The position numbers were made by a program, and so were the translations under genes. The notes below the pieces were generated by a model. The model was not told where the DNA came from, did not search any database, and saw only the letters and a program-made list of their open reading frames with translations. A stretch of DNA of 62,724 nt, counting the filler, from Hausera hauseri (taxonomy: Eukaryota): assembly GCA_046269625.1 (NCBI GenBank). It is 11 parts of 11 records of this genome, joined end to end, with 100 filler letters (N's around TTAATTAATTAA, not from the genome) between each part and the next. Parts side by side here need not be neighbours in the genome. Positions count along the whole stretch, not along the records: positions 48,895 to 55,894 come from JBJURY010044776.1; 10 more parts are not named here. One strand, 5' to 3'. Below, piece by piece: positions 6,555 to 61,135 of the stretch (position 1 is its first letter; each line of letters starts with the position of its first letter).

Positions 6555-6900
6555 CATCTTCTTCGTCATATCTACCGGGATACGGAGAAATCTTTATGCA
6601 GATCTGCGCTTTGATTTCTTTGAGAATTCTAGATTCGTCAGAGGTATTCAACGGTAGAATGAGGTTATTATATCGTTGAGTTTCGCGGAAATAATTCGTC
6701 CACGTATCGAGATTACCTTCGACATATCTCGGCAAATCTGGATAATTTAAACTCTGGAATATTCTGGCAACTAGCAACCAACAATTCATTTGGACACGTA
6801 AACGGACCAACTAAATTCTTTATAACTTCTTTATTTTCTAACCAAAGTTTATTGGATTTTGTTTCTTCTAGATATCGTTTGAACAAACTGATCAAATCTA
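6555..6900 (-). pseudogene. CSE1L: Exportin-2 (CSE1L) internal fragment with a deletion/frameshift
   Basis: SLFKRY..ETKSNKLWLE.K.V then, in another frame, RIFQSLNYPDLP..VEGNLDTW..IKAQIC..YDEE. Confidence 0.8.
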
Positions 6901-8936: not shown

Positions 8937-10151
8937 TTGACCGGAAGTAGACTTGCACAGTTATTCGATGCTAAGTCCCCACCTTCAGTTTCAAAAGTTC
9001 CTTCACACGAATTCAACGATCAGCGACATATTACGGATGAGAGTAATTTACGAATTCTCGATATGGTGATGTATCGCCAACTAAATCCAACATTAGCTCA
9101 ACGACATGGTCCAGTGATTTCAAACGAAATTTCAATTCTTCAAGCTGAATTACTTACGGAACTTGCATCTATTTTACCCATGTATCCGAAACAAATGGAT
9201 TCAAAAATATTGGACTCACCAGCTACCACCAATAATAAGAAGAAATCGCTTCCGAGAAAGTCGGTGGTGTCTAAATTGCAATCAGAGGATTATCAGTTAT
9301 CGGTATTGGAACAAGTGACCACTAATTTGGACTTTGCCAACCAAACGGACCTAACCTCCGCACAACTGAAATGCATCATGAATTTGGTTTCTTCGAGAAT
9401 GCTCTGGCCATTGACAGAAGACATTTTGTCGAATATTCAGAAATATGTTCCGAATGTCTGGATAAAACATGCAGAAGAGGTTAACAGCATCGTGCATGCC
9501 TTGTCGGTACAGTCTCAAAATACTCGATTACAGCACTGCAATCGTTCGGCTGCAAGATTGGCCATATTGGCGTTTAATATTTCGAATGAAGTAAATCAAC
9601 AGAATATTGCTGTAAACAATTCATCCAGTCGATTTTTGAGAAAACTCAATATATTTTTACACTTGAAATGCGAAAAGGAAATTATAAATGCATTGTTGAC
9701 AGAAATATCTGTGGGAAATATCATTAATCCCGGTAGTACAGCAATTCCCGATGTTCCAGAGGTGAAAGAGATAATTATTTCGTCTATATCGGATTGGGAA
9801 GAAAATGGATTAAAATTAAATAAGGCCTGGTTTGTAGCGGCCCTCGCAAAATATGTTTCGACTTCTTGTTACGAAGGTGAAAAATACATGGCCTTATTAA
9901 AAGAAGGCATAAGCATCTTAAAAACGGGTATCGAACTTTCGGACGATGAGCTTCAACTTCTTATTGTGGAACGACTTAGTTTGCTTAATGCAAAGCTTTC
10001 AATTCATTCAGATTGTAATGAACCATTGATAACTGAGATGGAGAAGAGCTCGATTTTACTGCAACACTCAGTGACCGTATTTACAGAAAATATATACCCA
10101 TTATCCGCCCTGTGGATTAGGAATAACGATTCTTTCAGTTATAGACGTTGA
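8937..10151 (+). CDS. 404-aa open frame, unknown eukaryotic protein (probably a large internal exon)
   Basis: Long stop-free frame in AT-rich DNA with no ATG start; no motif recognised. Confidence 0.55.
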   Translation: MTGSRLAQLFDAKSPPSVSKVPSHEFNDQRHITDESNLRILDMVMYRQLNPTLAQRHGPVISNEISILQAELLTELASILPMYPKQMDSKILDSPATTNNKKKSLPRKSVVSKLQSEDYQLSVLEQVTTNLDFANQTDLTSAQLKCIMNLVSSRMLWPLTEDILSNIQKYVPNVWIKHAEEVNSIVHALSVQSQNTRLQHCNRSAARLAILAFNISNEVNQQNIAVNNSSSRFLRKLNIFLHLKCEKEIINALLTEISVGNIINPGSTAIPDVPEVKEIIISSISDWEENGLKLNKAWFVAALAKYVSTSCYEGEKYMALLKEGISILKTGIELSDDELQLLIVERLSLLNAKLSIHSDCNEPLITEMEKSSILLQHSVTVFTENIYPLSALWIRNNDSFSYRR

Positions 10152-22685: not shown

Positions 22686-23065
22686 CTTAGAGTCTCACAC
22701 TCCACGAAGAAAACTCAGAGACATAGGAGGACCGTTCTCTGAGCACCCCAGGGGAATGCCCCCGAGTACGTGTGAATTGTACGAATATTGTTTTATTGTG
22801 TACTAACCACCTATTTTTCTCTATTTTTACTGCAGTTTGATTTAGGCCACATCCAACTATTTACCCAGCTAAAAGTGATAAGTATACTCAGCTCAGTGAC
22901 TGTTAAAATTACTTCTTATAATCCCAGATGAAGTAAAGTATATTAACAAAGTGTTATCTTGTGTTTATTTTGTGTTAAAGGTACCGCTTGCCTGGCTGAC
23001 TGGTGAGGAACTGCTGTGTGTACCATTTCATCCATTGTGTGCAGCTCTAGCATAACATTAGCAAA

Positions 23066-25081
23066 ATGTGGTGGCCACCAAAACCTGTGGTGATAGGAGT
23101 TGGTGTTTTATCAACTATCGTGCTATCACTCATTTTCTCTCTTGAATATTTCTGCGTGATCCCAGGTCTAAAGAGTTGCAGGGCCACTGTGGCGAAACGT
23201 AGAGAGAAACGAACTGTGTCCCCATTACAAACGCTGAAAGACTACTATGGCAAGCCCATATTAGACGTACAATATCCCAGAGGCTCCGCCACCACCCTGA
23301 AACTGTCAATTTGCAGCATGTTTGACTGCAAGGACTCACGTATCACGCACGCAAACTTCTACATTTGCCCATGTCCCCACCCAACTGGCTGTCGCTTCTG
23401 TGAGTGGACAGATGTTGTTCTGTACTCAGGTTCATGGGTTCCAACTATGACTGCATATCCTCCAAAATACGTAAGTTGGTGGAAAAACAATGCCACCCTA
23501 ACTAAGGGTGGAAATGATTTGCTCCTCACTCTCAAAAGAGTTGACAAGTGGTTTAAAATGACCTATTTAGGCTCTGGTGACATGGACTTCAATTTTGTTA
23601 CTGATCCTATGTCGGTACTGATAGCTGCGGAAGTCACTAATAGAGATCCCATACGAGTGTTACAACTCTCACTCACTGACGAACTTGAATCAGACACTTC
23701 TACAACAACTACGGCCCCTCCGTCGTCTGCCCCCACGCCTGTAAAAATGCGCATAGACAGCGTCGATTACACCAGTCTGACACCTGTGGAGGTAATTACT
23801 ATGTCTACAGGATACTCAGAGTCTAACATTTGGTTGGAGTGGCTCGCGGAAGCTGCAAGACAGGCTTCTTTATCTGAGTGTGTTGCTTGTGCAGCAGCTC
23901 GACCGACCTTGTATACCCAACCTGCTCCACTAGTTCCACAGGACGAGTGGGGATTTCAGTGTATGTTGAGTTTGACTAGAAAACGACAGAATAAGAACTG
24001 TACCACATTAGATCAATTGTTCCCACTAATCTCCAATAAAACTAAACTAGGTTCATTTACGCCCGCAAAACGACATGATTATTATTGTTTTAACTTCACC
24101 TCCAACAGTACTAACCAGATTGATCTGGGACAAATACAGCCAGACTGGTGCAACATTACACAGCAGAATGGTACCGACAACACCCGAGTGGGTAAGGTTG
24201 CACGTGCTGAATTATATTACTTTTGTGGAGGTAGGCGTCTGCTCACTCACATCCCTCAGGATTCTGTTGGCTTGTGTGCGATGGTACGATTGACTGCTTC
24301 CTTAACATTGATTGGCCCTCGGTTGGAAGTCCTGAATGACACCTCCAACCAACACAGTAGAAAGAGACGCTCGACACACAACTTTGATCCTACTGTTGGT
24401 TCACCAACATACATTGATGCCATCGGAATCCCTCGGGGAGTTCCTGATGAGTATAAATTAGCAGATCAGATTGCAGCAGGCTTTGAGAATATACCTGTTG
24501 TCTCAGCATATTTCCCAATCACCCCCAACAAAAATGTGGACAGGATAAATTACATACATTACAATGTGATGCGTTTATCTAATCTTACCAGGGATGCTGT
24601 GGAAGGCCTAGCTGAACAACTCGCCCCCACTTCACTGATGGCTGTGCAGAACAGAATGGCTCTTGATATGCTGTTAGCAGAGAAAGGAGGTGTGTGTAGC
24701 ATGTTTGGTGACCTTTGTTGTAGTTTCATTCCTAATAACACTGCCCCTGATGGAAAAGTGACCCGTGCACTTGAAGGTTTGAGAACGCTGTCTAATGAGA
24801 TGAAGTCTCATTCAGGGGTAGGTAACTCTTTTGATGATTGGCTCCTCAGTGTGTTTGGCCCCTGGAAGCAAATGATTATATCCATGTTAATGTCAATCGC
24901 AGTATTTGCAGCTATCTTGATCACATGCGGATGCTGCTGCATTCCGTGCTTGAGATCTTTGTCCGTGCGCCTCATCACTTCCACCTTAGAGAAGCGTGAT
25001 CCAGAAATCACCCGTCAACTTCTCATGCGCAAAGGCTATAACTTAGAGGATTTTGAGATGACCCCACGTTGCCGTACATAG
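23066..25081 (+). CDS. env: Intact gamma-type retroviral envelope glycoprotein of a fish-type ERV
   Basis: N-terminal hydrophobic segment, CVAC (CXXC), furin site RKRR, immunosuppressive domain AVQNRMALDMLLAEKGGVC, CX6CC, TM helix, CCCIPC; 671 aa with no stops. Confidence 0.95.
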   Translation: MWWPPKPVVIGVGVLSTIVLSLIFSLEYFCVIPGLKSCRATVAKRREKRTVSPLQTLKDYYGKPILDVQYPRGSATTLKLSICSMFDCKDSRITHANFYICPCPHPTGCRFCEWTDVVLYSGSWVPTMTAYPPKYVSWWKNNATLTKGGNDLLLTLKRVDKWFKMTYLGSGDMDFNFVTDPMSVLIAAEVTNRDPIRVLQLSLTDELESDTSTTTTAPPSSAPTPVKMRIDSVDYTSLTPVEVITMSTGYSESNIWLEWLAEAARQASLSECVACAAARPTLYTQPAPLVPQDEWGFQCMLSLTRKRQNKNCTTLDQLFPLISNKTKLGSFTPAKRHDYYCFNFTSNSTNQIDLGQIQPDWCNITQQNGTDNTRVGKVARAELYYFCGGRRLLTHIPQDSVGLCAMVRLTASLTLIGPRLEVLNDTSNQHSRKRRSTHNFDPTVGSPTYIDAIGIPRGVPDEYKLADQIAAGFENIPVVSAYFPITPNKNVDRINYIHYNVMRLSNLTRDAVEGLAEQLAPTSLMAVQNRMALDMLLAEKGGVCSMFGDLCCSFIPNNTAPDGKVTRALEGLRTLSNEMKSHSGVGNSFDDWLLSVFGPWKQMIISMLMSIAVFAAILITCGCCCIPCLRSLSVRLITSTLEKRDPEITRQLLMRKGYNLEDFEMTPRCRT

Positions 25082-27521: not shown

Positions 27522-28660
27522 TCATCCAGCCCGATGATGTCTCCTTCTTCAATTATCTGGAATTTCATAACCTCGTTCATAAATGCCGCATAGGAGCGTT
27601 GTTCCCACCATAGTAAGTTTTCAGTTTTTCTAAGGATGCTCTATATCCTTCTTCTTAAAGATCGAAATTTTCGACCAGTTTTTTCGGCTCCCCATACAAA
27701 CATTTATTTAACTGTAGTTGTTTGTATATATCCGTCATTGAGGTCTTGTGGATACACGTATCAAATGTCTTCCTCCATTTATCGTATTCTTTAACTATTC
27801 CCCGAACTTCGGTAATTCTAATTTTTGTAACTTTGGTAGAATTACCCTTTCCCTTTTTTCCTCTTCTGATCTTCCTCTGACGGCCATCATTTTATTTTCT
27901 CTTGAGGTTCTTTCATAGATGATCGCGTTAATTTTTTCATTCTGATCATCTAGCTTCTCCATGTCGTTTTCTAGTAACGTGATGTTTTCCTTCTTCTTCA
28001 ACTTTCTTGCCGCGGTAGCTAATACACACAGCTCCCCTTGAAGTACGTTGTAGGCTTTATCGTATTTTTGATGATAAACCTCGTACTCTTGATCGCTCAT
28101 GCTCGCATCCATCAACTTCCTCCGAATCGCTGATAGATCGTTAATAAATTTACGCCGTTCCGACAGTCTCTCTTCTAATTCTTCCGTAGTTAACTCGCTC
28201 CCACCTTTTAACCGCAACTGCAAAAAGAATGGTCGAGCCCTTCTGAATATAGTATTCATCAAGTTTTGGCACTCCTCAAGTTGTTTCCCGTTATAGATTA
28301 ACCGTTGTTGTTTTATCGGAATCCCTTCCTTTTCCTCGACTGCCAACTTCAACTCCTTTACTTTGTCCGACGTCTTCACTAAGACCGCAACTATTTTTCC
28401 CGAAATTGTTTCAAAAAATATCATTGTTTTTTCTTCTTCCAACTTTGTTGTTTCCTCTTACACAATTTCCTTGAGGACGAGTTCCCTTCTTTCGTCCTTT
28501 ACAGATGACACCTCTGGTGGTCGTGACTCACCTCTCTCTGGTTTTTCTCCCTGAATTTGCAGTTCTACAATCTTGAATCCGGAGTCATTTTTAGATTCCT
28601 GAGGTCCATTTGAATTTCCGCGGCAGCTCGTTTCAAAGGAGAACCCTTTTACGATTTCGC
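27522..28660 (-). mobile_element. BEL/Pao retrotransposon gag (DUF1759-like) with an internal ubiquitin-like domain, decayed
   Basis: KLELPKFG..EYDKWRKTFDTCIH..MTDIYK..CLYGEPKKLVENF..Y..SLEKLKTYYGG is typical of BEL gag. Confidence 0.82.
28200..28424 (-). other. Ubiquitin/NEDD8-like domain ending in LRLKGG
   Basis: MIFFETISGK..SDKVKELK..VEEKEGIP.KQQRLIYNGKQLE..LRLKGG; an alternate frame gives DEYYIQKGSTI (compensating frameshifts). Confidence 0.92.
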
Positions 28661-32649: not shown

Positions 32650-35600
32650 ATGTGCAAACTCTACAGAGATTGCATGGCTCAAATCCATGAGCTTGAAAAT
32701 TGCCACAATATTATGAAGAAGTATTTCAGCCATATGTACAACGGGGTTCAGTATTATATATGCCCTACATGTGAAGTAGTGTGCCAAACCAATTATGAAG
32801 ACTTTTACAATGTCCATAAACAGCACTTGATTTCCTTCACAAAGTCGAAAAACAAAAATTCAGTACCAATATGCCAATAATGACTTTCGTGCCAAAGGAA
32901 AATCAAAGATGCAGTTTATATGTGTACTGCACATGTGCAATACACAACCCTCAAAATTGCCACAATGCCATGAGCAGCTATTATTGACACAAGTTTAACA
33001 GGATCATTTATTATATCTGCCCTGGATGTCAGGCTGTATGTGATGGAGAATACATACAGTTTTATAAAGATCACAAACATCCTTTGACTGACTTTGCATC
33101 AAAGTCAAAGAAGATCATCTTTAATGAACATAAGCCAGTTGCACAGCCCGCAGTACCACAGCCTTCAGTACAGCCATATGCAGTATTAAAACGCATATCA
33201 GGCGCATCAGGCGCATCAGGCGTACCGGCTCCATCAAAGAGTCAAAGAAAGCGGCCAGTTGATGCTGCAACATTAAAGACGAAAGTTCCACAAATATATC
33301 ATTGATGCAACTGGTCAAACAACCATGAAGGAGTCCCTGGAGTACACAGACGAAGAAACAGAGGGAATTCTCCAGGATAGCATAGCTGAGCTCAATGCCA
33401 TTAAGACTAATATGAAACTGGAGACCATATAGTCAATGTTGATGGCGAAGAATCCAATAGAGCCTTCAAGACCAGAAATAGACCTATTTTTGAAGCCACG
33501 AATATAGTAGAATGGCTGCATGAAGAGCATGCAAAGCTTATCCGTGAAGCCGATGAGAGTCAGGATAAGAAGGGTGGATAGACTCTGGCAATCATCAAGA
33601 GATTGCCTGTGTATGTTCACGAGTACTCTCCCATGCGGGGCAGTTCTTATATTCAGCTTCCGGAATGGATCGCTAATAAAAAATCATGCATCAATGTCCA
33701 TAATAATGACAACAAGTGTTTCATGTATGCCATTCTATCAAAACTCGTACCAGATCATAAACATGCAGCGAATCGAGTTTGGCTATATAATAATCTGAAG
33801 CACAACTATGACTTCCAATGTACCACATTCCCTCCATCCTTACATGAAATTAAGAAGTTCAGCCGAATCAACAACATATCCATTAACATCATTGGATTAG
33901 ATAATGAGGACAAATTTTATCCCCTGCAGATATATGATACTAAATTGGAAGATCATAAGGATCTGTTCGTACTAGACGATGGAGACAAGAAACATTATGT
34001 TTGGATCAAAAATTTTGAGCGTCTAGTCAGATCCCAAATTACAAATCATCATGGATAAATAAAAATATGTAAACGATGTTTATCTCATTTCATTGGTGAT
34101 ACAGCAGTGAACAAGCTTGCAGAGCACAAAATGTACTGCAACAACAATTACTGTGTAAGACCAGAATTGTCCAAGGGGAACTATATTGAATTCAAGGAGT
34201 TCGAGAAGATCAAGGTCCCAATAGTGATCTGTTGCGACTTTAAGGCTATTCTCAGGCCAATTCACAGCTGCACTCCCAGTGCTCAACATAGCAGCACAAC
34301 GACATACCAATATCATGAACTCTCATCGTATTGCATATATGCCAAAGGACTGGACAGTGAACCATTTTTATTCAGGGGTCCATGTACAGCATCATATTTC
34401 ATGAAACGACTTAAAGACATGGCTCATAGGCTTGGAAACATGCTTCAGAAGCATAAGGATAATATGAGCATGTCGTAGAAACAAGCTGAAGAATGACGCA
34501 AGGCAACAACATATTATGCTCCAAATCATTCACCAAGGATAATCATAAAGTCAAGGATCATTGCTATTTTACAGTAACATATCGGGGCGCAGTATGCAAC
34601 AACTGCAATCTGCGTTGCAAAACATGCATATATGTGCCTGTAGTGTTTCACAATCTCAGTGACTATGATTCCCACTTCATTGTTCAGGAACTGGGCAACA
34701 CTGATAGGAACATTGATGTCATTCCCAATAGTGAGGAAAAATACATCACTTTTACCAAGCATGTCGGCCGCATTAGACTTCGATTATTAGAGAGCTTCCG
34801 CTTTATGAACTCGTCACTGGATAGTTTAGTGAAGAACCTCCCTGCAGAAGACCGGAAGAAGACGAAGCGGTTCTTCCCTACTACCCATCCTTATGACTAC
34901 ATAACTTCATGTGAAACACTGAATGAGACTTCACTGCCGGACAAGAAGGACTTTTACAGTATCCTCTCTCATTGTAATATCAGTGATGCTGACTACCAGC
35001 ATGCTCAGAATGTCTGGCATGCATTCAAATGCCGAACATTAGGGGAATACAACGACATATACCTCAAGACGGACGTTCTGTTGATGACAGATGTCTTTGA
35101 GAGTTACACGGATGTCACAATGAAGAGCCATGCTTTGGATCCGGCTCATTTCTTTACGATTCCAGGGATGAGCTGGACAGCTATGCTGAGATATACCGGC
35201 ATAAGGCTGCAGATCATTAAGAATTACTATATAATCCTTATGATCGAGAGAGGAATTAGAGGCGGAATATGCCAGGCCATTCACCGGTATAGCGAGGTCA
35301 ACAACAAGTATGTGGCCCAGTATGATCCGTCCAAGGAATCCTCATATATATCATACATGGATGTCAACAACTTGTATGGATATGCATTGAGCGCCCAATT
35401 GCCGTATGATGACTTCAAATGGGTCGAGAATCCTGAAACCATCCCTATATTGGACTTGGATCCCACCGGAGATACGGGATATATACTGGAGGTGGATATG
35501 GAATATCCGGCTTTAATCCACGCAAGGCATCAACAGCTGCCTTTCATCCCTGAGTAGGCATCCGCCCCATAGAAAGCAGAGAAAGCTGCTCTGTCAACTG

Positions 35601-41039: not shown

Positions 41040-41590
41040 CCATCGCTGGTTCGTCCACTCGTTGGAGTCAGACCGGGGCTGATCACCCAAAAACCTGTCA
41101 CGGTATTTCCTCAACCTCCACCAGGCCAGTCTGTGAGTCGAGGACGGCTACTGCTCCATTGAGAGGACCGGCCGTGACTGAATCCGATACCGAAGAGACT
41201 GAGAGAAACAACTAACAAGGTAATTAAACCTTTCTACTAAATTGTAAGTCCTACAAAAAGGACTGAGTGTAAAAGCCCTATATTCGAGAAAAAAATAAAA
41301 ATAAAAAAAAGGGAAGGGCTGAGTTTAAATTGTAGGCCTTTGGCTAAAGGCTGAGTGTAGGTCCATATATTAGAGAAAAATAAATAAGAAGGACTGAGTT
41401 TAAATTGTAGGTTTTCGGCGTAAAACCGAGGGTAGGTCCTGTTGGAACTGAGTTATGACGTCATAATTGAAGTGTAGGTTTCAACATTAAAAAAGGACTG
41501 AGGTGGAGAAAATTTTTATTTCATAAAAATCTTCTCCAGCCCACCATAAAACACCACCATATATTTGGAATAAAATTACTTTGTTCTAAA

Positions 41591-43645
41591 ATGGGTGGTT
41601 ACCTTAGGAAACACGGAGATGACGATTATATACCTTTTGGGCCCATTATAGACCTTATGAGAGAAAAACACGGAGAGACATGCATTTCTTTTTTGCCACA
41701 ATGGCATAATAAATTAGGTTTTCCTAAAAATGGCAGTCTAGACCCGGCTGACATTCAAAATCTGGAGGAAAAACTAATGAGCCAAAAGCAGAAAATGTTA
41801 AAACATAACAAAATATCTCGCGACCAGCTGGTCACTGAGTGCACATGAGGATGCTTTTAGACCCTGCTTTTAGACTGTGGAAAAATATGTCTTTAATTCA
41901 GCAATCCAAGGTCCACACTATGATTCAGATAATAGGGAAAACAGATTCAAAAATACAAGCCTTAAAAGAAAAATTACCTGATGAAACTAATCCGTCTGTT
42001 TTTTCTTTTCCATCCCCCACACCCTCTCATGCTCGAGCCCCATCCAGGCCCTCGGCCCCTCCAGCGGCTCCTAGTCTGTACCCCTCTCTCACGGGACTAA
42101 GGCACGATCCTCCTCCACCCTACGAATCTCCCACCCCATCCAAACCATCTCAGCCAACACCTAAGCCACGAGGAGGGCCACTCAAAATCCTTTGGCAGTG
42201 TGAGGGAGATGATGATTACCAGAACTGTGGGGATACATCTGACCGCCCTCTTGGTCAGGTTCTGGCTGTTCCAGCTCTCCCACAACAGCAACCAGATCCG
42301 CCTGTTAATGAGCAGCCTGCCCCTTCCACCCCAGGGTGATATAGCTGCAGCTTCAGGCTCCACAGTTCACTCAGATCCACCATCTTCCAACCTCAGAAGC
42401 AAAAAGGTAAAAACCCATGAAGAGTATGAAACTGAACTAAAAAACAAAGAAGCAGAACTAATTGCCCTTCAGAAAGAAGTAGCTAAAGTAGAGGCAAAGA
42501 GAAAAAGAAAACAAAAATCCAAACAAGACCAAGAAGAAAGGCTAAAGCAAGAAGAGGCTGTTGCCTGCCAGCTCCTGAAAGACCTTCTTCTGACCAAGAT
42601 CCCACCCCCATCAGACACTGCCCAAACTCCCCAGCTCCCCGTCGACACCCCACCTGAGGACACCCTCAGTTGTCCCATGGTTGAGGTAGGGGGCCCGCAG
42701 GGTGCACAACTAGTCCTCCGCACCTGGACCCGTATCGAACTGGTAGACATGGCGAAATCCTTCCTACCTGTAGTAGAACAGGGGGGCACAGAAATTGCAA
42801 AAGCCCTGGACACAATGTGCCACACCATGCGCCCCAGCACTGATGAACTGAGGGTTATCTTTGGGTCTGTTTACGGGGTGGGGTTCCTGTCAACTTTGGG
42901 CAACGTTTTTGGGGACGACAATCTTGTCCTTAGAAACATTGATCTAACTCACGCCTCAAATGATGCTTACAAAACAGTTCTCACCGCCATTAAAACCGCT
43001 CTAACTGACAAAATAAAAAAATGCCCCAAAATGAATTTAGTCAAAGTCTGTAAATACCAACTTGGTGATGTCCCCGCTGAATACTATGCCAGACTGAAGA
43101 AACTCTTCGACGTCCATGCTGGTCTGACTGAGCCTAGAAATGAATGGCTAACAGATGCTGACCCTGATCCCTATGAAAGTCTCCTAGCCCAATGTTTCAT
43201 GGATGGTCTGCCACCAACTCTTCAAGCTGCTGTAAAACTCACCTACACCGGCTGGGATGACGGCCTTCGCATGAAAAAGCTCCTTAAACACACAAAACAC
43301 GCTGTGGCCACCCAATCCCTCGCCAAAGAAGAAGCTGAAACAAAAAAGAGCTGCCTCCAGGAAGAAGCCCAGCTGACCCTGGTCCAAGCAGCTTCCACTT
43401 TCTATCAAAATGACCAGGGCAGGAGCCAAGGCCAAGATGACGCCTGTTTTATCTGTGGAGCTGATGACCACTGGTCCAGAAACTGTCCTGATCGCCGTCC
43501 CAGTCGCGGCCGAAGAGGCCGAGGGGGACCACCCAGAGGCCGTAGCTACAACAATAACAACCAGGGCTACAGAGGACAAAAGGGAGGATCCTTTCGTGGG
43601 GGTAAGAGGGGAGGTGTGCCCCCTTTTAGAGGTCAATCTTCATGA
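41591..43645 (+). pseudogene. gag: ERV gag, two frameshifts (about 41840 and 42330)
   Basis: MG myristoylation start, PSAP/LYPSL/PPPY late domains, CFICGADDHWSRNC Zn knuckle, RG-rich tail. Confidence 0.9.
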
Positions 43646-46600
43646 CTACAGCCGCTGGACGGACTCCAAGGACTCCAGCCCCTGATGAGTATCGAAATAC
43701 ACCCACCTAACACATGTTACTTACAATATTCATCCTCTGCTCATTTAAAGCTCCCTATGCTAACTGTACAAGTTCAAAACACACCCATTGATTTTCTTGT
43801 AGACTCAGGAGCCACTCAATCTCTCATTAAACATTCTTGTTTACCTGGAGCACCCCTCTGTGGTCGTACAGTCCACTCCACAGGTGCTTCAGGGGAAACT
43901 GTTCCTGAGCCAGTAACTTCACCACTCTCTTTAACAGACCATTTTTAAAGAAAATCAGACCACACCCCCCAGATGAGTGGCAGTTTGTCCAAGATCTCAG
44001 AGCTGTTAATGCTGCTGTACAACCCCGTGCTCCCATTGTCCCCAATCCTTATACTATCTTAACTCAAATACCTTCTTCTAGCACTTGGTTTACAGTTATT
44101 GATCTAGCTAATGCTTTTTTCAGCATCCCTATGCACCCTGACAGCCAGTTCTGGTTTGCTTTCGAGTTTAAAGGCAAGTCTTATACATTCACTCGCCTGT
44201 GTCAGGGATACTGTGAATCTCCTACCATTTTTCACCAGGCTTTGAATGATAACCTTGCTTCTTTTTTCCTGCCTGCAGGATCTGCTCTGCTCCAATATGT
44301 TGATGATCTCCTCCTTGCTGCACCCTCCAAGGATGAGTGCATCACCCAGTTTTTCCGTCTTCTCTCCTTCCTAGCTGAAAATGGTCATAAAGCATCAAAA
44401 TAATAAATAATAATAATAAATAAGCTCCAATTTGTCCAACCAACTGTTACATTTCTGGGTCACGTCATCTCCAAAGAGGGAAGGGCCATAGCTCAACCTC
44501 GTGTTGACGCTATTGTTTCACTGCCTCTTCCCAAAACTAAAAAACAACTTATGTCTTTCCTAGGTCTGTGTGGGTATTGTAGGCATTTCATTCCATGTTA
44601 TGCTGAGTTAGAAACCCCATTAAGAGAAGTATGTCATGACAAGGGGTTACAAATGAGCTCACATGTCAACTGGACTGCAGCTGCCATAAAAGCCTTCGAA
44701 GCGCTCAAAATTCAATTACAAAAAGCACCCACTCTTGGTATTCCAGATCCAACTCGTCCTTTTGTGCAGACGGTGGATGAGAAGTGCGGTTGCATGACTT
44801 CTGTTTTGCTCCAAAAACATGGCGACAGATTGAGACCAGTTGCTTATTTTAGTTCTAAATTGGATCCTGTTGCAGCTGGCCTGCCCCACTGCCTTAGAGC
44901 CGTGGCGGCCGCGGATAAGGCTGTAACAGCATCCCGAGACATTGTGGGTTATTCTGATCTGACCCTCCTCGTTCCCCACGCTGTCACCCTCATCCTCAAC
45001 GAACAGAAAACCGCTCATTTATCTACTGCTCGTTGGTTGAGGTATCATGCTAGCTTATTAGACATGCCTAACATCACCATCCAGCGCTGTAATGTTCTTA
45101 ACCCTGCCTCTTTGCTCCCAACACCTGAGGACGGCCAACCTCATGACTGTGTTGCTGAACTTGACGTCATCTGCTCACCTAGACCTGATCTACAACAACA
45201 TCCCCTTGTCTCTCCAGACTGGGAACTCTTTGTAGATGGCTCCGCCTCTCGTGACCCCCACACTGGCTCCGCCCTGTGTGGCTATGCTGTTGTGACAGCT
45301 TCTGAGGTCATTGAAGCCCACCCCCTGTCCTCTTGTTCCGCCCAAGCCTGTGAACTTATCGCCCTGACTCAGGCCTGCATTTTGTCTTCTGAAAAATCTG
45401 TAAATATTTACACTGACTCTCGTTATGCTTTTGGTGTTGTTCATGATTTTGGTGCCTTATGGAAACACAGACGTTTCCTTCGGTCAGATGGCCCATTTTA
45501 AATCACCTTCTAGTCTGACCTCTTAGAGGCCATTATGCTCCCGTCCCAAATTGCTGTTATAAAATGTTCTGCCCACACATCTTCTATAGATCCTGTTTCT
45601 TTAGGAAATGCATTTGCTGACTCTACAGCTAAATCTGCCGCCCGACTGACCACTGACCTACTCTTACCACTACTACCCTCTGACCCACCTCTCTCATTAT
45701 CTGATTACAGAAGTTCTCCACTCCTGCTGAACGCTCCTCCTGGAAATCCTGTGGCTCCTCCTTCACTGACTCCATCTGGATTGGCCCTAATGGTAATCCA
45801 TAAACAATTTTTTTCCCAGCTTTCGCCGTTTTGACACACGGTCCTGACCATGTGTCAAAGGGAGGAATGCTGAGGGTCATTGATAAACACTGGTTCACCA
45901 TAAATCTTTCAAAAACAGCAAAATCCTTCTGTGACTCCTGCTTAACATGTGCTACACACAACATAAGCAGAGGTCAGAAATTAACAACACAAGGAGCACA
46001 TAAGCCCACCTGTGTTCCTTTCCAACACCTAATGATTGATTTTATAGAAATGACCCCAGTGGAAAATAAAAAGTATTGTCTAGTTATGGTTGACATGCCA
46101 AAGCAGTTGCTAAATGTCTGCTCACAGATGTAATCAGCAGATGGGGTATTCCCCGCCGAATCAGCAGTGACAATGGACCCCACTTTGCAAATCAGATAAT
46201 GACTGAAGTCTCCCAACTACTAGACATTGATCTAGCAAAACACTGTGCCTACCACCCTCAGAGTGGTGGTGCAGTAGAGCGTGAAAATGGAACATTAAAA
46301 CTGAAACTAAACAAAATTTGTTCCCACACAGGTCTCAACTGGGTCCAAGCCCTGCCTATTGCTCTCATGTCCATGAGAATGAGGGAAAGAGCCAAACATA
46401 ACCTTTCACCTTTTGAAATCCTTTTTGCAGGACCGCCCAACCTTGGTCTGGGCCCACCAAAAGACCCTCACAGCTGTCTCACCACATGTGATGACAAAAT
46501 GCTCCAATACTGCATTGAACTAACAAAATCTTTGACTTCTCTCAGGAAAAATGTTCAAGGAGGACAACCTGGACCAGCACAAGAATCGTTGCATTCTATA

Positions 46601-46760
46601 CAGCCTGGAGATTTTGTTATGCTTAAAAATTTCAGGAGAAAGCGGTGGAACAGTCCAAGGTCCCTTCCAGGTCCACCCACACCGCTGTGAAGGTCGCTGA
46701 ATGAGCCACTTGGGTCCACGCCTCCCACTGCAAAAAAGTTCGGGACCAGCCCACCATCAT
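43646..46760 (+). pseudogene. pol: ERV pro-pol (protease, RT, RNase H, integrase), defective
   Basis: FLVDSGA; VQDLRAVN, YVDD; FVDGS, IYTDSRYAF; H..H..C..C, SDNGPHF, HPQSGGAVEREN. Deletion at about 43945; (TAA)n insert at about 44400. Confidence 0.93.
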
Positions 46761-48894: not shown

Positions 48895-49122
48895 CAAGAT
48901 TTCTAATTTTATTTACATTTTTCTTCATTAAATTTTGATTGTTTAAATTAAGTTTATTTTTACAAATTTCGTCATCTTTAAATGCACAGTTATTGAAATA
49001 AATTATTTACAAAATATTCAAGGTATGATTGACAATTTCGCGAGAATTAAATAAATTCTAAATATATCAGCTGAGTAATTTCTAAATTAAGCCGCACTAT
49101 TAATCGACATAGTCCATTGCAG

Positions 49123-49938
49123 TTATATTTCTCCTCCCTGAGCGGCATCCTCGAAGGAGCCTATTGCGTCAGAAGAGGTGGCGCCAAATGTTCTTGGTTG
49201 CCTTAATCGATTCGTTCTTTCTCGCAAATCAGTTTGGGAATCTGGTTGATCTTTACTTCTTATGGGGCTCGTCTCTAGGTCATAACTATGGTAGGGCTTA
49301 ATGCGAAAAACTCGGGTGTAACTCCCGTCGGAGTAATACTTTAATTCCGTTGCCTCTGCTCGGCACACCGGACATGTTGTTTTTCCATTGTCTAGTGTCC
49401 ACTTGTCCAAACAGTCTCGACGATACTTATGACGGCAAATTTTGTTGTCCAGTACCACATAGCCTTGGTTTAAGTTGGCATGGCACACAGGGCATTCATT
49501 ATCCTCCTTATCCCAATCATCTCTATCTAAATCAACCTGGATTGTCAATTCAATGGGATCGAATATAAGGCCATCCTCGTCGTTATAAAGGTATCCATGA
49601 ATTACCTTCTGCTTAGGATTAATGGAGTTCTTCCGTGGGTCACAGCTTACTTGTATTAGGGTCCAATCTGCCACGAGGTCTCGGTCTAAGTCTAGAATCC
49701 TTCCTTCTATTTGATATCTTTGATATTGCTTCTTTAGTAATATCCGGATTTGCTTATCTACTGGGACTATTATTTTTCCTGTCCTTTTTGAGCGGAAGAC
49801 TGAGGTAAGGTAGTTTCCTAACTTAGGGTTTTCCCAAACATATGTATTTTCGAAAACTTCTCTCGCTGGGGCAACTTTTATGTAAAACATGGCTTCTTTG
49901 ACCATCTTCTTACTACAATATTCTGTAGTTATAAGCAT
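49123..49938 (-). CDS. RING-finger protein ORF inside an LTR element (RING at 49360-49494)
   Basis: CPVC-x15-CRH-x5-CLDKW-x8-CPVCR, a RING-H2-like pattern with the fifth ligand replaced by R. Confidence 0.8.
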   Translation of the reverse strand: MLITTEYCSKKMVKEAMFYIKVAPAREVFENTYVWENPKLGNYLTSVFRSKRTGKIIVPVDKQIRILLKKQYQRYQIEGRILDLDRDLVADWTLIQVSCDPRKNSINPKQKVIHGYLYNDEDGLIFDPIELTIQVDLDRDDWDKEDNECPVCHANLNQGYVVLDNKICRHKYRRDCLDKWTLDNGKTTCPVCRAEATELKYYSDGSYTRVFRIKPYHSYDLETSPIRSKDQPDSQTDLRERTNRLRQPRTFGATSSDAIGSFEDAAQGGEI

Positions 49939-49960
49939 TCTTGGTGAGTCCTGAGCCGTT

Positions 49961-52067
49961 TTACATTGGACGATTTTTTTTAATTTTCTTCCCTAAAAGG
50001 ACATTAACTTCGATTATCATGGGTTCAATAACTTTCTTTTCTACAGATTTTACCTTCTGGGAGGTACTTGGTTCAGTTTGTTGGTTTTCTTCCTTTGGCT
50101 TCTTGCTTTTTCCCTCTTTCTTAAATAAGTAATTATAAATGGATAGCGTTTTCTTGGGTTGGGACTTTTCTTCTAATTTCTGTCTCTTTATTATTTTTTC
50201 CGGCCTCAACTCTTCTTTGTGTTTCTCTGGTGACTTTGATGTTCTATCTGGTGTTTCATTTTCTTTTTTGATCGTCTGTAATTCCGTTTTATTTTATTCT
50301 TGTCCTTCCATAGGTTTTTGTACTGTGATAATAAGGCTATGCTTGCCAGTTGGCTGGACGGTTCTGATCGAAGAGTAGGGTTTGATATTCTTTCTATATT
50401 TAATATATATTTCTTCGGGCTTTAGGGAACTGCGTAAATTGTATGTGGGGTTTCTAGGAGCCCATTCGTGTTCCCACTTTAACGATTTACACATTTCTTG
50501 CAAATATTTGGAGCGTTGGCTAGCCGTTAGAAGTCTTGGAATTCTACTCGAGTCATTGCTCATTGCATCGATCATTAACTTGAAGAAGGCTTCTGGAGCG
50601 GTTGGTCAATTTCTTCCTTGTACGGTTTTCTCCATTCGTTCTTGGATTATTGGGTGGGTGGCCATTTCCCTAAGTCCGGCAATATTTGCATAGGATATTT
50701 CTAGTAACTCAATTGATCGTTGCACATTATATCCTGTCAGCATACAACCGTAAAGACAATGATCCAACTCGGACTTGCTTAATGCTTTTCCTCTTATGAG
50801 CTGCTCTCTTCTTAATTGGTGTCTCATTATATGCTCGACCATAGCGAATTCTGTCAGTCTTTCATTTATTATTCCTGCTATGGAAGGTAACAAGTCTATC
50901 CACTTCCTTATTTGTTTAGATATTGCTGGTTTAGCGTAGATTATTTCGTTTAATGTCTCAGTAGCTTCTTTTAGTTCGTGATCTGGCCCTCGTACAAATT
51001 CTATGATATGTTTCACGTAGTTGAATTCTTCCTTATACTCATCTAATTCAAGAAGACAAGCACGTATTATTCTCTGTGCTTCTGCCTTTTCAGGATGGAC
51101 TACACCGATTTTTAAGTCGTTAATTTCGATTCGTATTTTGTTTTCTCTTTCAATGCGTATTTTCAAATCCGGGTATTGTCGAGGATTATGCTTTATCAGG
51201 CTACACATTGCTATTAAAGGGGGAATATCGATTTGGTCTATACCCAATATCTCTAGGTCGGCATTAGTCAGTTCATATACCGGCTTGTTATGAAGATAAG
51301 AAATTATCGCCTCTTCGATCTCATACATCAATCTTTCTAAATTACGTCTTACGAGTTTCAGTTTTGGGTTGTCTTTTAGTGCGTTTAATAGTCCTTGCGC
51401 TTGATTCATTTGATCGAGGAATGGCTCATTCTATTCCACCATATTTTCGTAAAATCGATCGCACTCCTTGTCCACAGTTCTAATTTATTTTTCCAACTCT
51501 CTATCAAGTCTTGTGGCGTTTCTTGAAGTTCGTAAGGTGTTTTTTCTTTCTGTTTGTGAGGGCCGGGTTGGAGCTTTTTATATAGTTTTTCTATGAATTG
51601 TTGTTCTTTTCCGGAGATATCCAACTGTTTGCTCATCTTCTAAAGTTTTTGCAGGCTCTCCTGTAGCCTTTCTGGGTCATTCAGTGCGTCAATTATTTTG
51701 GTTAGTTCGTTTGCATTTTTCCAAGATTTTCTAATCCCCCCAAACTTAACAGGTTTTTCCTCTTCTGATTCCTCTTCGCTAGGTGGTAATGGACATACTT
51801 CATTAATTTCATCAATATTTGAAATATTTGTTGTTTCCGGAACGCCTTGGGTTAGAACGGGAGTATTTAACTCCGTTTCATCTCTTAAAGTGATGATAAA
51901 GTCGTCATCTTTTTCTAAATTCTTTTAATAGGGGATCTTGAACGAGTTCCCGACCTTCTCCTAAATGAAGGGCTTCTACCCCTATTTTTGGTTATCTTGA
52001 GTATTAGTGGGCCAATGAATTCGCTCGCAACCTCGTCTGTTATTTTATCCTCATTTCGCGACGCGGC
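49961..52067 (-). pseudogene. Run of co-oriented ORFs of unknown function between gag and the RING ORF
   Basis: ORFs 51406-51636, 50606-51409, 50294-50575 and 49961-50209 abut or overlap, like a frameshifted long ORF; no PR/RT/IN motifs. Confidence 0.55.
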
Positions 52068-53476
52068 TTAGGTATCTGCAACCAAGTCTACACTTGGAGA
52101 CGTAGTCGGCTTTCCTTCTTCCGCTATTTGGTTTAGGTTTCTGTTCCAGGCCATGTTAATATTCTTAGGTGCTATAGCATTCTCATACTCCGTTTTGGGT
52201 TCTCTTAACCCATGATAAACTTCCATTAGCTGCAACTTTTCTTCATACTCCTTCCTGACCTTGATTACTTGTGGATTATTAAATTCGCCCATATTTCTTA
52301 TATACCATCGTAAGTCCTGCATCTCGATAATCATGCTTATATCACCTTGTTTCCCATAAATTCTTTCCAAATTATCCTTTATCGTGCTAGCTTTACTGGT
52401 CTCTGAAAATGATACGCTTCGTGGATTAGGACATGATCTAGCTATATGTCCTTCCTTACCGCATGAATAACAAATCAGATTCCCGTCTCGGCCAATTCTT
52501 TGTCGTCCGTCTTCATTCACTGATGATTTGGATCTGCCTGTTATTTTGTTTTGAGTCGGTTTAGTTTGCTTATCGATTCTGTTATTTCTATTTTCGAAAC
52601 TTCGATTATCTATATATCGATTCTTATTGCTTCGGTCAATATATTGGTTCCTATCCGAAACATAACCTGTTTTGTTATAAGGGTTATATGTGTTCCGATT
52701 ATCACTAAAGTTCCTACTGTCATATCTTGTGCTGCGATTAGTGGCATTTTGAGCTCTATTTTCATAACCTCGGTCCTTATTATTATCGCTAAATCTTCTA
52801 TTGTTCCGATTTCTATCTCGATTATCGCGATCATTATTTTGGTCATATCTATCACTCTGTCTAGCGTATCTATCTAGTGCCATTTCTAATTTCTGAGCTA
52901 ACTATAATGCAGTCTCAAAATTGTCTGGTCAAGCTAAAATTAGTTGCTTAACTAAATCTCTGGACCATATACCGTTTATTAATTGAGTTGTCATCATGAC
53001 ATCTAAATCCGGCGGGCTAGCTTTTCTGCCGCTTCGCGTTCCGCGTCCGTCTTTGCCTTCGCCGCATTAACTATCCTTAGCGTACTCACGTAACTATTAG
53101 CAAGCTTCTTTAGTGCAAATGCAAATTGGGTGACTGATTCACCCTTTTGTTGCGTTCTGTTTTGGAAGGCCATAAGCTTTTGTTCTGGCGTCACCGTCGG
53201 CAACAGTTTGCGGTTCAGTGCTCCTACTACGGTGGACCATGATTTCTTCTCGACATTGGTAAGTTCACTATAGGCATCTGCAGCCAGATTTTTTAAGTAT
53301 AATGACAGTCGTTTAATCATAAGTTTGGGCGCAAGACTGGCACGTTCTGCGTATAATTTATAAGTTTTTAAAAAGTCATTTAACCAATCCGGGTCACCGT
53401 CGTATGCCGGTAAGTTCAAAGAATCGAACGTAAAAATGTCAAGTTTCTGTGCTATAGCAGGGTTGTCTGCTGCCAT
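52068..53476 (-). mobile_element. gag: Gypsy-like gag (capsid domain plus CCHC knuckle), disrupted
   Basis: LPAYDGDP..FL..Y..L.LYLK..A..W..L..RTQQKGESVTQFA; N/R/D-rich linker; CYSCGKEGHIARSC. Confidence 0.88.
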
Positions 53477-53838
53477 CTTTAATGGATTTGGTTTATATGC
53501 TTTATGAATTTTAGGAGGAGCTTTGAATTCTTTAACGGAGGTTAGTTCAGTGTCAGATAAACAGTGCTTATCTATTACCTTGTCTTCAATATAAAGTTTA
53601 TTCCGTGTTTCTCTTTGGTTAAGTTTCTCGGTACCGTTTACTAATAAGTTTTGACACGAGTTGAAGCTCTCAGTGTTTACTCTCGGATTAATCTTTACTT
53701 AATTCCCTTCTAACCACTTATGATCCCAAGTTTAAGTTCTTAACTCGTATTGTATAACAATTATTTGGTGTAAATGGCGCTATTCGCCCGTATGCCGCTA
53801 ATTGACTCTCGAAAGTAATGTCTAGCGAGGCACAAACT

Positions 53839-53856
53839 GTCCTGCTAGGGTTGCCA
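53839..53856 (-). promoter_or_regulatory. Primer binding site (tRNA-Arg-like)
   Basis: TGGCAACCCTAGCAGGAC 2 nt after the LTR end TGTAACA. Confidence 0.65.
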
Positions 53857-53858
53857 AA

Positions 53859-54493
53859 TGTTACAGTTGGGGTGCCCCTTACCGTTTCCCACTATAACAA
53901 TATTTTCACTTGAAATTAATATTCCTATAAGCAGGTTAGGACTACTCGTTCTCGAATAGTCTGCTTGTACCTTAGGAATTTAATTGATATTATATAGTGA
54001 TGCCTGTACTGTCTGCTTGAATGAATGCCTCAGTTTATTTAAGTTCTCGCTTTAACTATATACTTTAGTAATGATTTTGCCCTTATTGTAGTCTAATCGT
54101 CTTTAAGAGACGATGCGAAACTATGAGGGATTTTAATAAACAAAATTTAAATAACCTTTATTTTTATAGTACGACCACAAGATTTCAATACAATCAATCA
54201 CGAATAAGTTCAGTTTGGATAAGTCGTAGTCATAGTCAATAATTGATTTCGATTTCGTTTTGTTCTGATGGGCTCTAAGGTCGATAGCTGGTTTGTGGTT
54301 CTGTTCTGTCTCTATACGAAGCCTGCTTATATAGTGGCAGGTCCGGAATTCGTTAAGTTTATTCACAAAATATTTAAATCTTCGAATTTTTAGCATTATA
54401 ATTCATCCGTAACTATTATATAACTATTTGTCTATCAGCGTATATTCTAGTAACTGGCAATTCCATAAATAAATTCCGTAATACTTGCTAACA
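53859..54493 (-). repeat. 5' LTR of the gag-RING element
   Basis: Minus strand TGTTA(54493)..TAACA(53859) inverted termini adjoining the PBS. Confidence 0.6.
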
Positions 54494-55894
54494 ATTTACA
54501 TTCAATCGTTCATTTCCGAAATAATGGTTAAACAATATAATTCAGGAATAGGGAGACTGTGATCCAAGAACTAACAATAAAGAAGTGTTTCCGACTGTTG
54601 CCACTAATTGTAATAGTATTTGTAAACCACATAAGTGAGGATAGAATATAGTTTTACTTTAGATTAATTGTTTTAGGAGTGGCTATATTAATGATTCACA
54701 TTTAACTTTCCCTTATAATCCTTGAATTAAGAAACAGCTGAGCAGGGTGCAACTTTGAGTAAACTAATTGGAACTGAAAACCCAGTGAAGTGTATGTCTC
54801 ATGGTAGAAATGAGTTCATGGAGAGTACAAAATTGAGCAAGCAAGGAACAGGAAATTGAATTAATATTAATATAACTTTTATGGTTTTCACAATCACTGC
54901 AAATGCGACAATCCCATAGTTCCTCAGTAGCCTGTAGCAACAATCATGGTTGGGAGTGCGTAGGCCTATTCCCTTTGGAGGATTGTATGTTACAGCTGTT
55001 AGGAAGGAGCAATGAATGATGTCCAGTGTTGCACACAACACACTAGCTCAGCACTTATGATTTATCTGTAACACATCCAGTGCATCTTAAATGACTATTG
55101 CAGCTCGAAGTGTTTATTTATACCTTTTACTCATTATTTGACTTCCATGATTTACTTTTCCCTGCATTCTAATGTTGAAGGTGTTGGAGGAGCCCACTGT
55201 GATTTATTTATTGTCAGGTTCTTATTTTGTTTTGATTGTATTCTTGAATGTTTACTATTTCCTTTGTCCTTGAGGATAGAACAAATAGGCTTGTCACATA
55301 ACTCTAAGAATTAGTTTTTGCCACTGCCTATGATCGATCATTCGTGTCCAGCCCAGGTCTGATTCCTAACCGCACCTCTCGCTCTTGGTGCCTGTACCCG
55401 GCAGACGCAAGTTTAATTTATTATGTTTTTCAAATAAAACAGCCTTGCGGTTCAACAAGCATCACAAACTGAGTACCGGAGTAAGTCGCTGGTAAATAAA
55501 AGACGTGGAGACTCACTCCTCTTTTCCTTTTACGACTTTAGATTGAATGGTAACAATCTATTTAATGGTACCAGTACACAGATCAAACAGGCAGTAAGCA
55601 GAAGAGGAAGAATAATAGGCCTACTTTAAAAGGAAGGTATCAGGAACCACGTGATACAATATATGAGGGGTGAATGAACACGGAGGGCGAACAGCGAGAG
55701 AGATTTCCTACAATAAACACGTTTTTACTTCTATTCACACGTTTGAGAGATTCTGAAGGAATTCGAAGGGCAAACTTTGATGCAGGAATGCGGAGGGTCA
55801 CTTCTGGCTCTCACCCTCACCTACAAGTCCTCGCATTAACCCTTGACGGAGGAGTAACGAGGTTCACACCCGGTCAAGGATAGTCAGTGACCAG

Positions 55895-57008: not shown

Positions 57009-58241
57009 TTATTTGAATAAAACATTATCACGAATTGATGTTAGTATTCGTGTTATTTCTGGGTCATCGTAATTGATGCTCATTGAAAATTTGATCGGAC
57101 GTATTGTGTTGATTAGTAATCGTCGTACGAAGAATGAGAGGTATTGACGAAGGGATTATAACACTTTTGTAAAGGCCTCTTATTGATCTATTATCATTCT
57201 GGTGATTACACTGAATGATACTGAGGAACGTATCTGGCGGTGTGTCGTGAAATCCTATGTCATCTAGGACGACGAGGTCGTATTCACCTGTCCAGTCCAC
57301 TGGACAGTCGTGTAGTGAGTGGAGAATTAATGGGTTGTTGCCGTGTGATAAGGCAAACGAGGTTTTGCCGATATTTGAGGCAACAAATATGATCGCTGAG
57401 TTTATACCTCTGTCTGGTTGAAATGTAATTTTGTCAATTAGAAATTCTAGATCTCTTCTGGGAACGTATCTTTCCCGAAATTTATTCCTGACGTAGGTAC
57501 ATAAGAGCTTGTTCCTGGTGACAAATTCGGCCCTGTCACCCTCTTTCATTATTTCTAATGCCTCATTGGCTGATTTGGCATCATCGAACATCCGGTATAC
57601 CGCCTTTCTGCTGGTGTTGTCCCGGAGTACGTTAAAGGGCGGTACACCGAATTGAACGACAGTTGCGCCCTCGAAGGTGGGCTTATGATGGTATAGGTAG
57701 ACCTGTTAAATTAATAATAATATTAATAATATAAATTTGTATACTTTTTGTATGTCTTCTCTAAACGGTAAGATGAAAGCTCCCAATATCTTCCACATCG
57801 TTCTCATTCGATATGGTTGTGGTGTATGAATGAGAACGTGTAGATGCTTGTTACCTCCTTTGGATAATTCCTCTTGGAGGCGGATGAACCATTTGTGTTT
57901 ATAGTGCATTGGGAGGTAGACTGATTCAGCAAAGTATCTTCCTGTGAAATCTTCATCAATTTTGTGTACAAGCATGAAATGTCTGAATGTTGCTGATCTG
58001 GGAGGCATAGCAAGTTTATTAATGTCTTCAGTAAATTTAGATTGTAATGAATCAAGGATATCTTTGTCAAATGCGTTGTCCGGGAACAACGGGATATCCT
58101 TTTCAGTAAATACATGAAAATTTCTGCGATATTTCCTTTATTTCAAAAATTAAAATTTAAAAAAATATCAAAATGTACCTTTCATTATTATCTACATGCT
58201 CATTAGGTTGTACCATTTGTCTTTCTACATAAACATTGTCC

Positions 58242-60396: not shown

Positions 60397-61010
60397 GGCA
60401 TCACAACGGACTTGTACAAACCCCTAATGCTCCTATTATCATTAGGATGGTTGCACTGAATAATAGAAAGGAATAAGTCAGGACGACGTCACTGAATCCG
60501 ACATCATCAAACACTAACAAATCGAATTCGCCACTCCATTCAGGAGTGTCGTGAAGCGAATGGAGAACAAGAGGGTTAGATCCGTGACTAATAGCATAGC
60601 ATGTCGTCCCTATATTTGAACTACCAAAGATAAGAGCGCTATTTACACCGCGATTAATATCAAAAGCTATAGGAGGTAACGTAAACACAAAATTATTAGC
60701 CAAACACACCTTAGGTCGAAATTCCGCACTTACATAAGACGTTAACATCTTATGCCGAGTTACAAATTCAGCGCGATCGCCATCTTTCATTATTTGCATG
60801 GCGTCGGCTACAGTTGGGGCCTCATCAAACATCCTATACAAGGCCTTCCTACTAGTGTTATCCTTCGTTATATCTATCGGAGGGACCCCAAACTCAATAA
60901 CAAAAGAATTTAAACTAACTTGTTTGCAATGATACTTATAAACGGCAAAAACATCATGCCGAAAAGGTATTACGTATTGTAAATCAAAAACAGCTTTAAA
61001 TTGGGACAAT
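60397..61010 (-). pseudogene. rep: Second, divergent Rep copy, truncated at both ends and intronless
   Basis: FGVPP..DNTSRKA.YRMFD.A..DRAEFVTR.K, GSSNIGTT, LLVFDDVG, then frameshifted FLSIIQCNH.NDNRSIRGLYKSV. Confidence 0.85.
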
Positions 61011-61135
61011 CTCAAATGCAAACAAAAAACATTAAGGAATTTTCGTCGTAAAGGAAAATTTCAAACTGTCACAAGATATTTATATAAGAAATAGGCAGAT
61101 ATGTGAAATTAATGTTAATTAATAATACGAAAGAT

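Follow-up and report, generated by a model that had tools for sequence, protein, structure and literature searches.

A stretch of 62,724 nucleotides from the genome of Hausera hauseri (NCBI GenBank assembly GCA_046269625.1), hereafter the window, is made of 12 unrelated contigs with artificial N spacers between them. On the minus strand of contig 10 (48895-55894, 7,000 bp; JBJURY010044776.1) lie the remains of a long terminal repeat (LTR) element that shows, in order, an LTR-like end, a primer-binding site (PBS), gag with a CCHC knuckle, coding sequence without a family, half of a putative nuclease fold, a RING finger, and a polypurine tract (PPT). With roughly even confidence, we interpret it as a dead, internally deleted element without pol, derived from a Ty3/gypsy-like LTR family in which a pseudo-nuclease-RING accessory gene lies at the 3′ end. 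We regard the RING gene as real and borne by the element, and the fusion of Gag to RING in the window copy as more likely an accident than the design of the family. The features are as follows, in the order in which the minus strand is read (ORF, open reading frame; P0002, a related protein described below).

53859..54520, minus strand: putative 5′ LTR in a single copy, suggested by motifs and a CpG step; upstream boundary approximate
53839..53856, minus strand: PBS of 18 nt, 2 nt past the LTR end, fitting the complement of a tRNA 3′ end (CCA, C61/C62, pyrimidine 60)
52431..53476, minus strand: gag, with capsid region, R/N/D-rich spacer, and one CCHC knuckle, from Pfam matches
50816..52430, minus strand: coding sequence without a family, about 540 codons, continuing the gag path; codon-position bias, one favored frame per stretch
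50477..50815, minus strand: C-terminal part of a DnaQ/DEDDh-type fold, predicted inactive; 45/113 residues identical to P0002 295-412; stop at 50608
49990..50476, minus strand: post-nuclease conserved segment (50476-50315) and K/E-rich linker with basic clusters; 22/54 and 20/72 identical to P0002; stop at 50296, frame change near 49990
49525..49950, minus strand: domain of about 140 amino acids without a family, before the RING, a candidate substrate-binding module; 65/139 identical to P0002 601-740
49363..49494, minus strand: RING finger of the C3HC4 type; zf-RING_2, E = 2.1e-8; 32/44 identical to P0002
49123..49362, minus strand: post-RING segment and ORF tail, stop at 49125-49123; 14/31 and 16/40 identical to P0002, last residues matching the end of that protein
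49128..49139, minus strand: PPT under the last ORF codons, recognized by position and conserved peptide end
48895..49127, minus strand: AT-rich tail with undepleted CpG at the expected start of the 3′ LTR; no canonical TG start, unlike the 5′ LTR-like region

The RING gene and its relative P0002

A phmmer search with the RING ORF against 1.84 billion representative sequences gave 356 matches (E ≤ 0.001), 150 of which were listed. All 150 listed matches hit the RING, and P0002 (870 amino acids, E = 6.7e-72) is the only one among them that matches the whole query. This protein, encoded on an ENA contig of 16,242 bp, also matches 50815-50099, and the conserved region extends from 50815 to 49126, through the final codons. 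Conservation peaks in the RING (73% identity). Seven of its eight zinc ligands are present in the window copy, where the fifth position is not a ligand residue; P0002 has all eight ligands and the conserved Trp, with zf-C3HC4 above the Pfam cut-off. Among the 203 tblastn pieces listed, 18 extend beyond the RING, namely two from P0002 and 16 that are anchored in the RING (24 to 37% identity). No named or family-annotated protein sharing the non-RING parts was found among the listed phmmer matches, a search with P0002 returned only P0002 itself (1 of 5902 candidates), and scans of prokaryotic genomes for its relatives confirmed 0 of 259 and 0 of 102 candidate stretches.

P0002 comprises an N-terminal domain, a putative DnaQ/DEDDh fold, a basic linker, an uncharacterized domain, and a complete C3HC4 RING. 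It has no match to a Gag family in Pfam or NCBIfam, and nothing in the window, whatever the frame, corresponds to its residues 1-294 (173 of 1000 shuffles scored as well). Residues 55-240 and 601-740 form domains without a family match, the second of which is 47% conserved in the window; the window counterpart of the latter (49525-49950) likewise has no convincing match in Pfam, NCBIfam, or PDB.

P0002 and the window ORF share their terminal residues, the codons of which overlap the PPT in the window. The tract, overlooked by the earlier note on this DNA, is one of 13 purine runs of at least 11 nt on the minus strand of the contig and one of the four that contain at least six G; what makes it count is where it lies, together with the conservation of the peptide end. 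In gypsy-like elements, ORFs commonly extend onto the PPT. Because the end of the ORF that is conserved in P0002 lies on the PPT, we consider the RING gene to be the 3′ gene of an LTR element, and a pol gene beyond the contig end is ruled out because the ORF ends on this tract.

The identity of the nuclease fold comes from P0002. In PDB, the only two matches at E ≤ 5 to its residues ~246-345 are DnaQ (E = 1.1e-4) and the PolC exonuclease (E = 4.5e-4). NCBIfam models of DnaQ/PolC match at E values of 0.004 to 0.011, far below their cut-offs, and Atlas gives RNase_T clusters at 0.87 to 0.88, with the ten best family matches all in one family or clan, which we treat as a lead only. Aligned to DnaQ, P0002 has other residues in place of the Asp and Glu of ExoI and the Asp of ExoII, and we therefore read the fold as a pseudo-nuclease; ExoIII lies beyond the aligned part, and its absence is a judgment by eye. 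The window copy lacks the N-terminal nuclease strands with ExoI, as its match opens at P0002 residue 295, inside the fold, and the remaining piece alone gives no family match. A by-eye reading of 50770-50690 as a UBA/CUE domain was dropped, as the stretch aligns to the nuclease fold.

Gag, the reading path, and the ends of the element

Upstream of the RING gene, Pfam identifies Retrotrans_gag at 53006-53698 on the minus strand (E = 0.005, under the curated cut-off) and zf-CCHC at 52472-52431 on the minus strand (E = 7.5e-7). The gag frame is open from 53698, with its first ATG at 53476, a frame change near 53010, and stops at 52931 and 52904. To follow the reading frame from 53698 to 49126, we used a codon model trained on the segments supported by homology. 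The model favors one frame at a time along this whole distance, with frame changes near 53010, 51990-51930, 51500, and 49990, and the stops within the path lie at 52931, 52904, 52070, 51642, 50608, 50296, and possibly 51433. The coding region thus amounts to a single decayed path, with 6 to 7 stops and 4 frame changes in about 1,450 codons. The A-rich strand skew and undepleted CpG are common to gag and the RING gene.

The sequence between gag and the nuclease fold (52430-50816) is mostly helical over its last 200 codons and includes the stops at 52070, 51642, and perhaps 51433 and the frame changes near 51990-51930 and 51500. Searches of family and profile collections and of protein databases found no family or relative for it, and Atlas gave no usable match for the helical ORF. 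Word-based searches of longer proteins returned none of 2426 candidates with the helical ORF, a weak result since the same search missed P0002, and none of 2336 candidates with gag residues 70-231, likewise weak evidence. A single-sequence AlphaFold2 (AF2) model of 50609-51430 was uninformative (predicted local distance difference test score [pLDDT], 42), and Foldseek found no match to it, with no viral structures at E ≤ 0.001. A MAFFT alignment of the helical ORF to P0002 100-250 was rejected by shuffles, as was an off-frame match of five residues near 51030 (68 of 300 shuffles as good). The ~540 codons may be a long Gag extension, as in the Burro elements discussed below, or a piece of another ORF.

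The pol gene of Ty3/gypsy elements (Metaviridae), which encodes protease, reverse transcriptase, RNase H, and integrase (PR-RT-RH-IN), was not found in the window copy. A six-frame motif scan of the contig yielded no protease motif, and on the minus strand there are one [YF]xDD, located in the noncoding tail, and one match to the HHCC pattern, located in the upstream flank and running across stops. None of six pol pieces from other contigs of the window had a tblastn match at E ≤ 0.1. For an element without pol, gypsy-like is a provisional label of the superfamily, taken from the gag family match and the layout.

These results bear on most of what the earlier note had described from the sequence alone. 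Its gag with a CCHC motif, its RING domain followed by a stop, its lack of pol motifs, and hence an element unable to replicate alone all hold, as do its PBS and its AT-rich DNA reaching to the contig end (GC content, 0.30). Its concern that the RING ORF might belong to a host gene or a separate insertion is answered by the conservation of 50815-49126 in P0002. What it took for abutting ORFs are fragments of a single decayed path according to the codon model, and of its ~3 kb of uncharacterized coding sequence only 52430-50816 (~1.6 kb) keeps that description; the remaining half, approximately, has a relative in P0002. The 5′ LTR that it named has no second copy to show it and is drawn here from motifs, a CA end, and the CpG step.

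The motifs of the putative 5′ LTR include a TATA-like box at 54333, AATAAA at 54162 and 54039, and a CA terminus at 53859, before the PBS. Near 54520, the ratio of observed to expected CpG steps from 0.2-0.4 directly upstream to 1.0-1.6 inside the LTR-like region. Over the whole flank (54520-55300) the ratio is 0.2 to 0.45, compared with mostly 0.6 to 1.6 in the element, and this depletion of the flank against an undepleted element suggests a methylating host, probably an animal. The PBS pattern (CA-N0-3-TGG-N11-GG-purine) has a single match in the contig, at 53860 on the minus strand; when the 1,044 nt upstream of gag were shuffled, 54 of 2000 sequences contained it. The primer may be of the tRNA-Arg type. 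An Rfam search of the contig gave no matches.

Several smaller observations concern these end regions. Directly before the PBS, a 41-nt segment (53859-53899, minus strand) has inverted-repeat ends, TGTTA...TAACA, and may represent either a hairpin of U5 or an LTR that has collapsed; it folds no better than its shuffles do (z = 0.38). Within the ORF tail, a second ACATTTGG followed by CGCC (49176-49191, minus strand) resembles an LTR end and PBS start, probably by chance, and fails the full PBS pattern. The putative LTR contains an 89-codon open frame (54133-54402, minus strand) with marginal Pfam matches only (E = 0.05 to 0.13), also probably by chance. Upstream of the element, at 55300-55894, the CpG ratio returns to ~0.85 and the strand skew flips, which may mark where another repeat or LTR, on the plus strand, ends.

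At the other end, no second LTR copy was detected in the contig: the 230-nt 3′ tail, which is cut by the contig end, is unlike the 5′ region. Equal scores for this pair arose in 180 of 300 shuffles and, under three other scorings, in 130, 30, and 22 of 300. With the comparison anchored at 54493, 38 of 500 shuffles did as well, and so did 206 of 762 real AT-rich windows. An in-register likeness of the two regions seen by eye was therefore rejected as not significant against shuffles and AT-rich windows.

The junction at 50815 and its explanations

The match to P0002 opens in the middle of the nuclease fold, and this junction is probably secondary, produced by a cut in which pol and the beginning of the accessory gene were lost. 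What survives of the fold is 40% identical to P0002, and the domains flanking the RING are 47% and 45% identical. Because the half-fold is as conserved as the intact domains, we argue that it was constrained for equally long and that the cut is recent. We propose that the long ORF on the Gag side was fused in frame with the accessory gene, partway along it, by an internal deletion or template switch; such an event would have lost pol and the first third of that gene shortly before or after the death of the copy. We regard the window copy as dead, producing no nuclease-RING protein, and as probably rearranged.

Several observations weigh against this interpretation. The two ends of the element differ in sequence, so that it needs a 5′ LTR that was truncated or a 3′ LTR that was lost. 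At the junction the frame is kept, as would happen one time in three by chance, and the composition shows no step. P0002 is known as a protein whose LTR nature and upstream pol are presumed, and the family architecture is drawn from this one relative. The signals for the nuclease fold are each weak, though four partly independent ones concur; Pfam RNase_T does not match P0002, the Atlas scores stay below 0.9, and an AF2 model of P0002 (3 rows) is uninformative (pLDDT, 30). The functions proposed below are likewise predicted from sequence.

The mismatch of the two ends keeps alive another explanation, in which the contig is a chimera of two elements, formed by nested insertion, inter-family recombination, or mis-assembly, with gag and the 5′ LTR from one and the nuclease-RING gene and 3′ LTR from the other. 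At so low a lesion count, the two LTRs of a true pair should probably have stayed very alike; the homology also breaks abruptly, and no relative ties gag to the RING gene. However, the two sides lie on the same strand and in frame with a similar codon-position bias, and the junction bears no signature of an LTR, PBS, or repeat. We rate a chimera as unlikely but worth keeping in view.

The earlier note had proposed a giant Gag-RING polyprotein or a non-autonomous element with an E3 ubiquitin ligase, possibly directed against host silencing. Spelled out, this would be a genuine non-autonomous family with a single Gag-X-half-nuclease-RING product of ~1,450 amino acids, mobilized in trans and with its E3 ligase packaged in particles. 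The path is continuous from the gag ATG to the PPT, the junction is in frame, the composition is uniform, and both PBS and PPT are kept; moreover, Gag-only elements transpose in plants, and Burro fuses ubiquitin-system domains behind Gag. The continuous coding path stands, but the proposal as a whole is weakened and now seems unlikely to us: the junction cuts through a fold of which the surviving half has been conserved as well as the intact domains, P0002 is without Gag, and no Gag-fused relative appeared among the 150 phmmer matches listed (of 356) or in the word-based searches of longer proteins, which are weak evidence. Less likely again is its extension to a lineage of animal LTR elements in which pol has been replaced by a Gag-fused, nucleic-acid-binding E3 ligase that mirrors the host restriction factor PML (discussed below), trans-mobilized and carried in particles so as to destroy host silencing factors, and helping an autonomous partner.

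RING domains are common in hosts and in large DNA viruses, all 150 of the listed matches (of 356) hit the RING, and P0002 is known only as a protein, yet it is very improbable that the RING ORF is a host gene, retrocopy, or DNA-virus gene beside a truncated gag, for it is intronless, decayed like gag, and undepleted in CpG next to a depleted flank, it shares with P0002 the terminal residues, which lie over a purine tract, and its non-RING parts match no named or family-annotated protein among the listed matches. The cargo may have had a viral origin before its capture.

Possible function, known systems, and other contigs

In intact members of the family, the dead nuclease fold and the basic linker would bind RNA or cDNA, and the RING would recruit a host E2, a textbook pairing, and ubiquitylate proteins on the bound nucleic acid, acting as a nucleic-acid-guided E3 ligase. 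The likeliest targets would be host silencing or restriction factors on the ribonucleoprotein (RNP) of the element; alternatively, the ligase may serve the turnover or trafficking of its own Gag or RNP. An intact protein probably has E3 activity. An anti-defense role is a more tentative suggestion, which we hold at somewhat less than even confidence.

Cargo of the two kinds is known separately. In the planarian giant gypsy-like elements Burro/GYPSM1, a CCHC Gag is followed by a long in-frame noncanonical sequence, with cargo that includes MATH-TRAF, Ubi2/SUMO-like, BIR, BCL2, and AIR1 “with RING Zn-finger” (PMC6431247). As described there, Burro retains PR-RT-RH-IN, measures 25 to 30 kb, and carries its cargo upstream of pol, whereas here a C3HC4 RING lies at the 3′ end, on the PPT, together with a dead DEDDh fold. 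Cargo families of Burro (MATH, BIR, ankyrin, BCL2, env, pol) had no Pfam matches in the ORFs of the contig or in P0002. The gypsy-like Vesta and Juno elements of bdelloid rotifers have a 3′ accessory ORF3 of DnaQ-like 3′-5′ exonuclease origin, and additional ORFs after pol, DEDDy nucleases among them, have been described (PMC5408684). The nucleases of Vesta and Juno are of the DEDDy/RNase D type with intact catalytic residues, and the paper does not contain the word RING; here the type is DnaQ/RNase T, the acids are replaced, and a RING is fused. The same paper describes Maelstrom and EXD1 as dead DEDD folds that keep RNA binding (PMC5408684).

TR-GAG elements resemble the window copy in having gag without pol between LTR-type cis signals (PMC8704663). 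In contrast, TR-GAG elements belong to plants and have two LTRs around a single intact ORF that encodes only Gag, while the present copy is broken, has one LTR-like end, and continues for 3.3 kb of further coding sequence; its broken path with nuclease-like and RING parts sets it outside that group, and it belongs to neither Burro nor Vesta/Juno. A functional parallel is the host protein PML/TRIM19, which combines a RING with a DEDDh fold in one chain, the fold being catalytically dead in amniotes and acting on retroelement RNPs; PML suppresses L1 (PMC10123124). In this host restriction factor, the RING, B-box, and coiled coil precede the nuclease; here the nuclease precedes the RING, no B-box is present, and the protein is encoded by the element, so that the comparison is a functional analogy that does not imply homology. 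The “ring” of the Cer1 CERV refers to oligomers and is irrelevant (PMC10309623).

Searches of the literature at the level of listings and abstracts found no LTR element with a DEDDh-RING accessory gene; most subscription papers, Repbase, and Dfam were outside their scope, and the family may thus be catalogued already. Such a gene would extend the known cargo of active DEDDy nucleases and Burro ubiquitin and apoptosis domains by an architecture that parallels host PML. Few element-encoded counter-defense proteins are known from animal LTR retrotransposons. A conserved dead DEDDh-RING accessory gene is a concrete candidate for one, and P0002 makes its E3 activity, nucleic-acid binding, and substrates testable.

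The earlier note had also paired this element with a ubiquitin-Gag fusion on contig 6. That fusion looks real (ubiquitin, E = 1.9e-13; weak DUF1759, E = 0.056), but the contig is unlinked and cargo of this kind was already known in Burro. Because artificial N spacers join the contigs, contig 6 is not a genomic neighbor of contig 10. The region 27522-28457 (minus strand) of contig 6 is probably a gag of the BEL/Pao type with ubiquitin at its N terminus: a ubiquitin domain that ends in di-glycine is followed by a stretch resembling a coiled coil and by the broken beginning of a DUF1759-like domain.

Retroelement, polB, and Rep-like pieces occur on other contigs, and presence in the same window therefore does not amount to linkage. 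Contig 5 has a retroviral env (23051-25078, plus strand; TLV_coat, E = 4e-9) and contig 9 a CpG-depleted gag-pol with two RNase H matches (41471-46690, plus strand), each a broken endogenous retrovirus piece. Protein-primed polB remnants, Polinton/adintovirus-like, lie at 33582-35554 (DNA_pol_B_2, E = 1.3e-8 at 34490-35554) and, recognized by eye only, on contig 4 (20511-21956). Rep-like frames on contigs 11 and 12 (57064-58137 and 60404-61060, both minus strand) look related to each other (Gemini_AL1, E = 0.007; Walker-A-like stretch by eye) and are possible CRESS-DNA-like endogenous elements. Contigs 1 and 2 carry host-gene-like matches to a CDK5 activator (8910-10148, plus strand; E = 0.0014), Cse1 (6445-6810, minus strand), and the C-terminal domain of leukotriene A4 hydrolase (2898-3266, minus strand).

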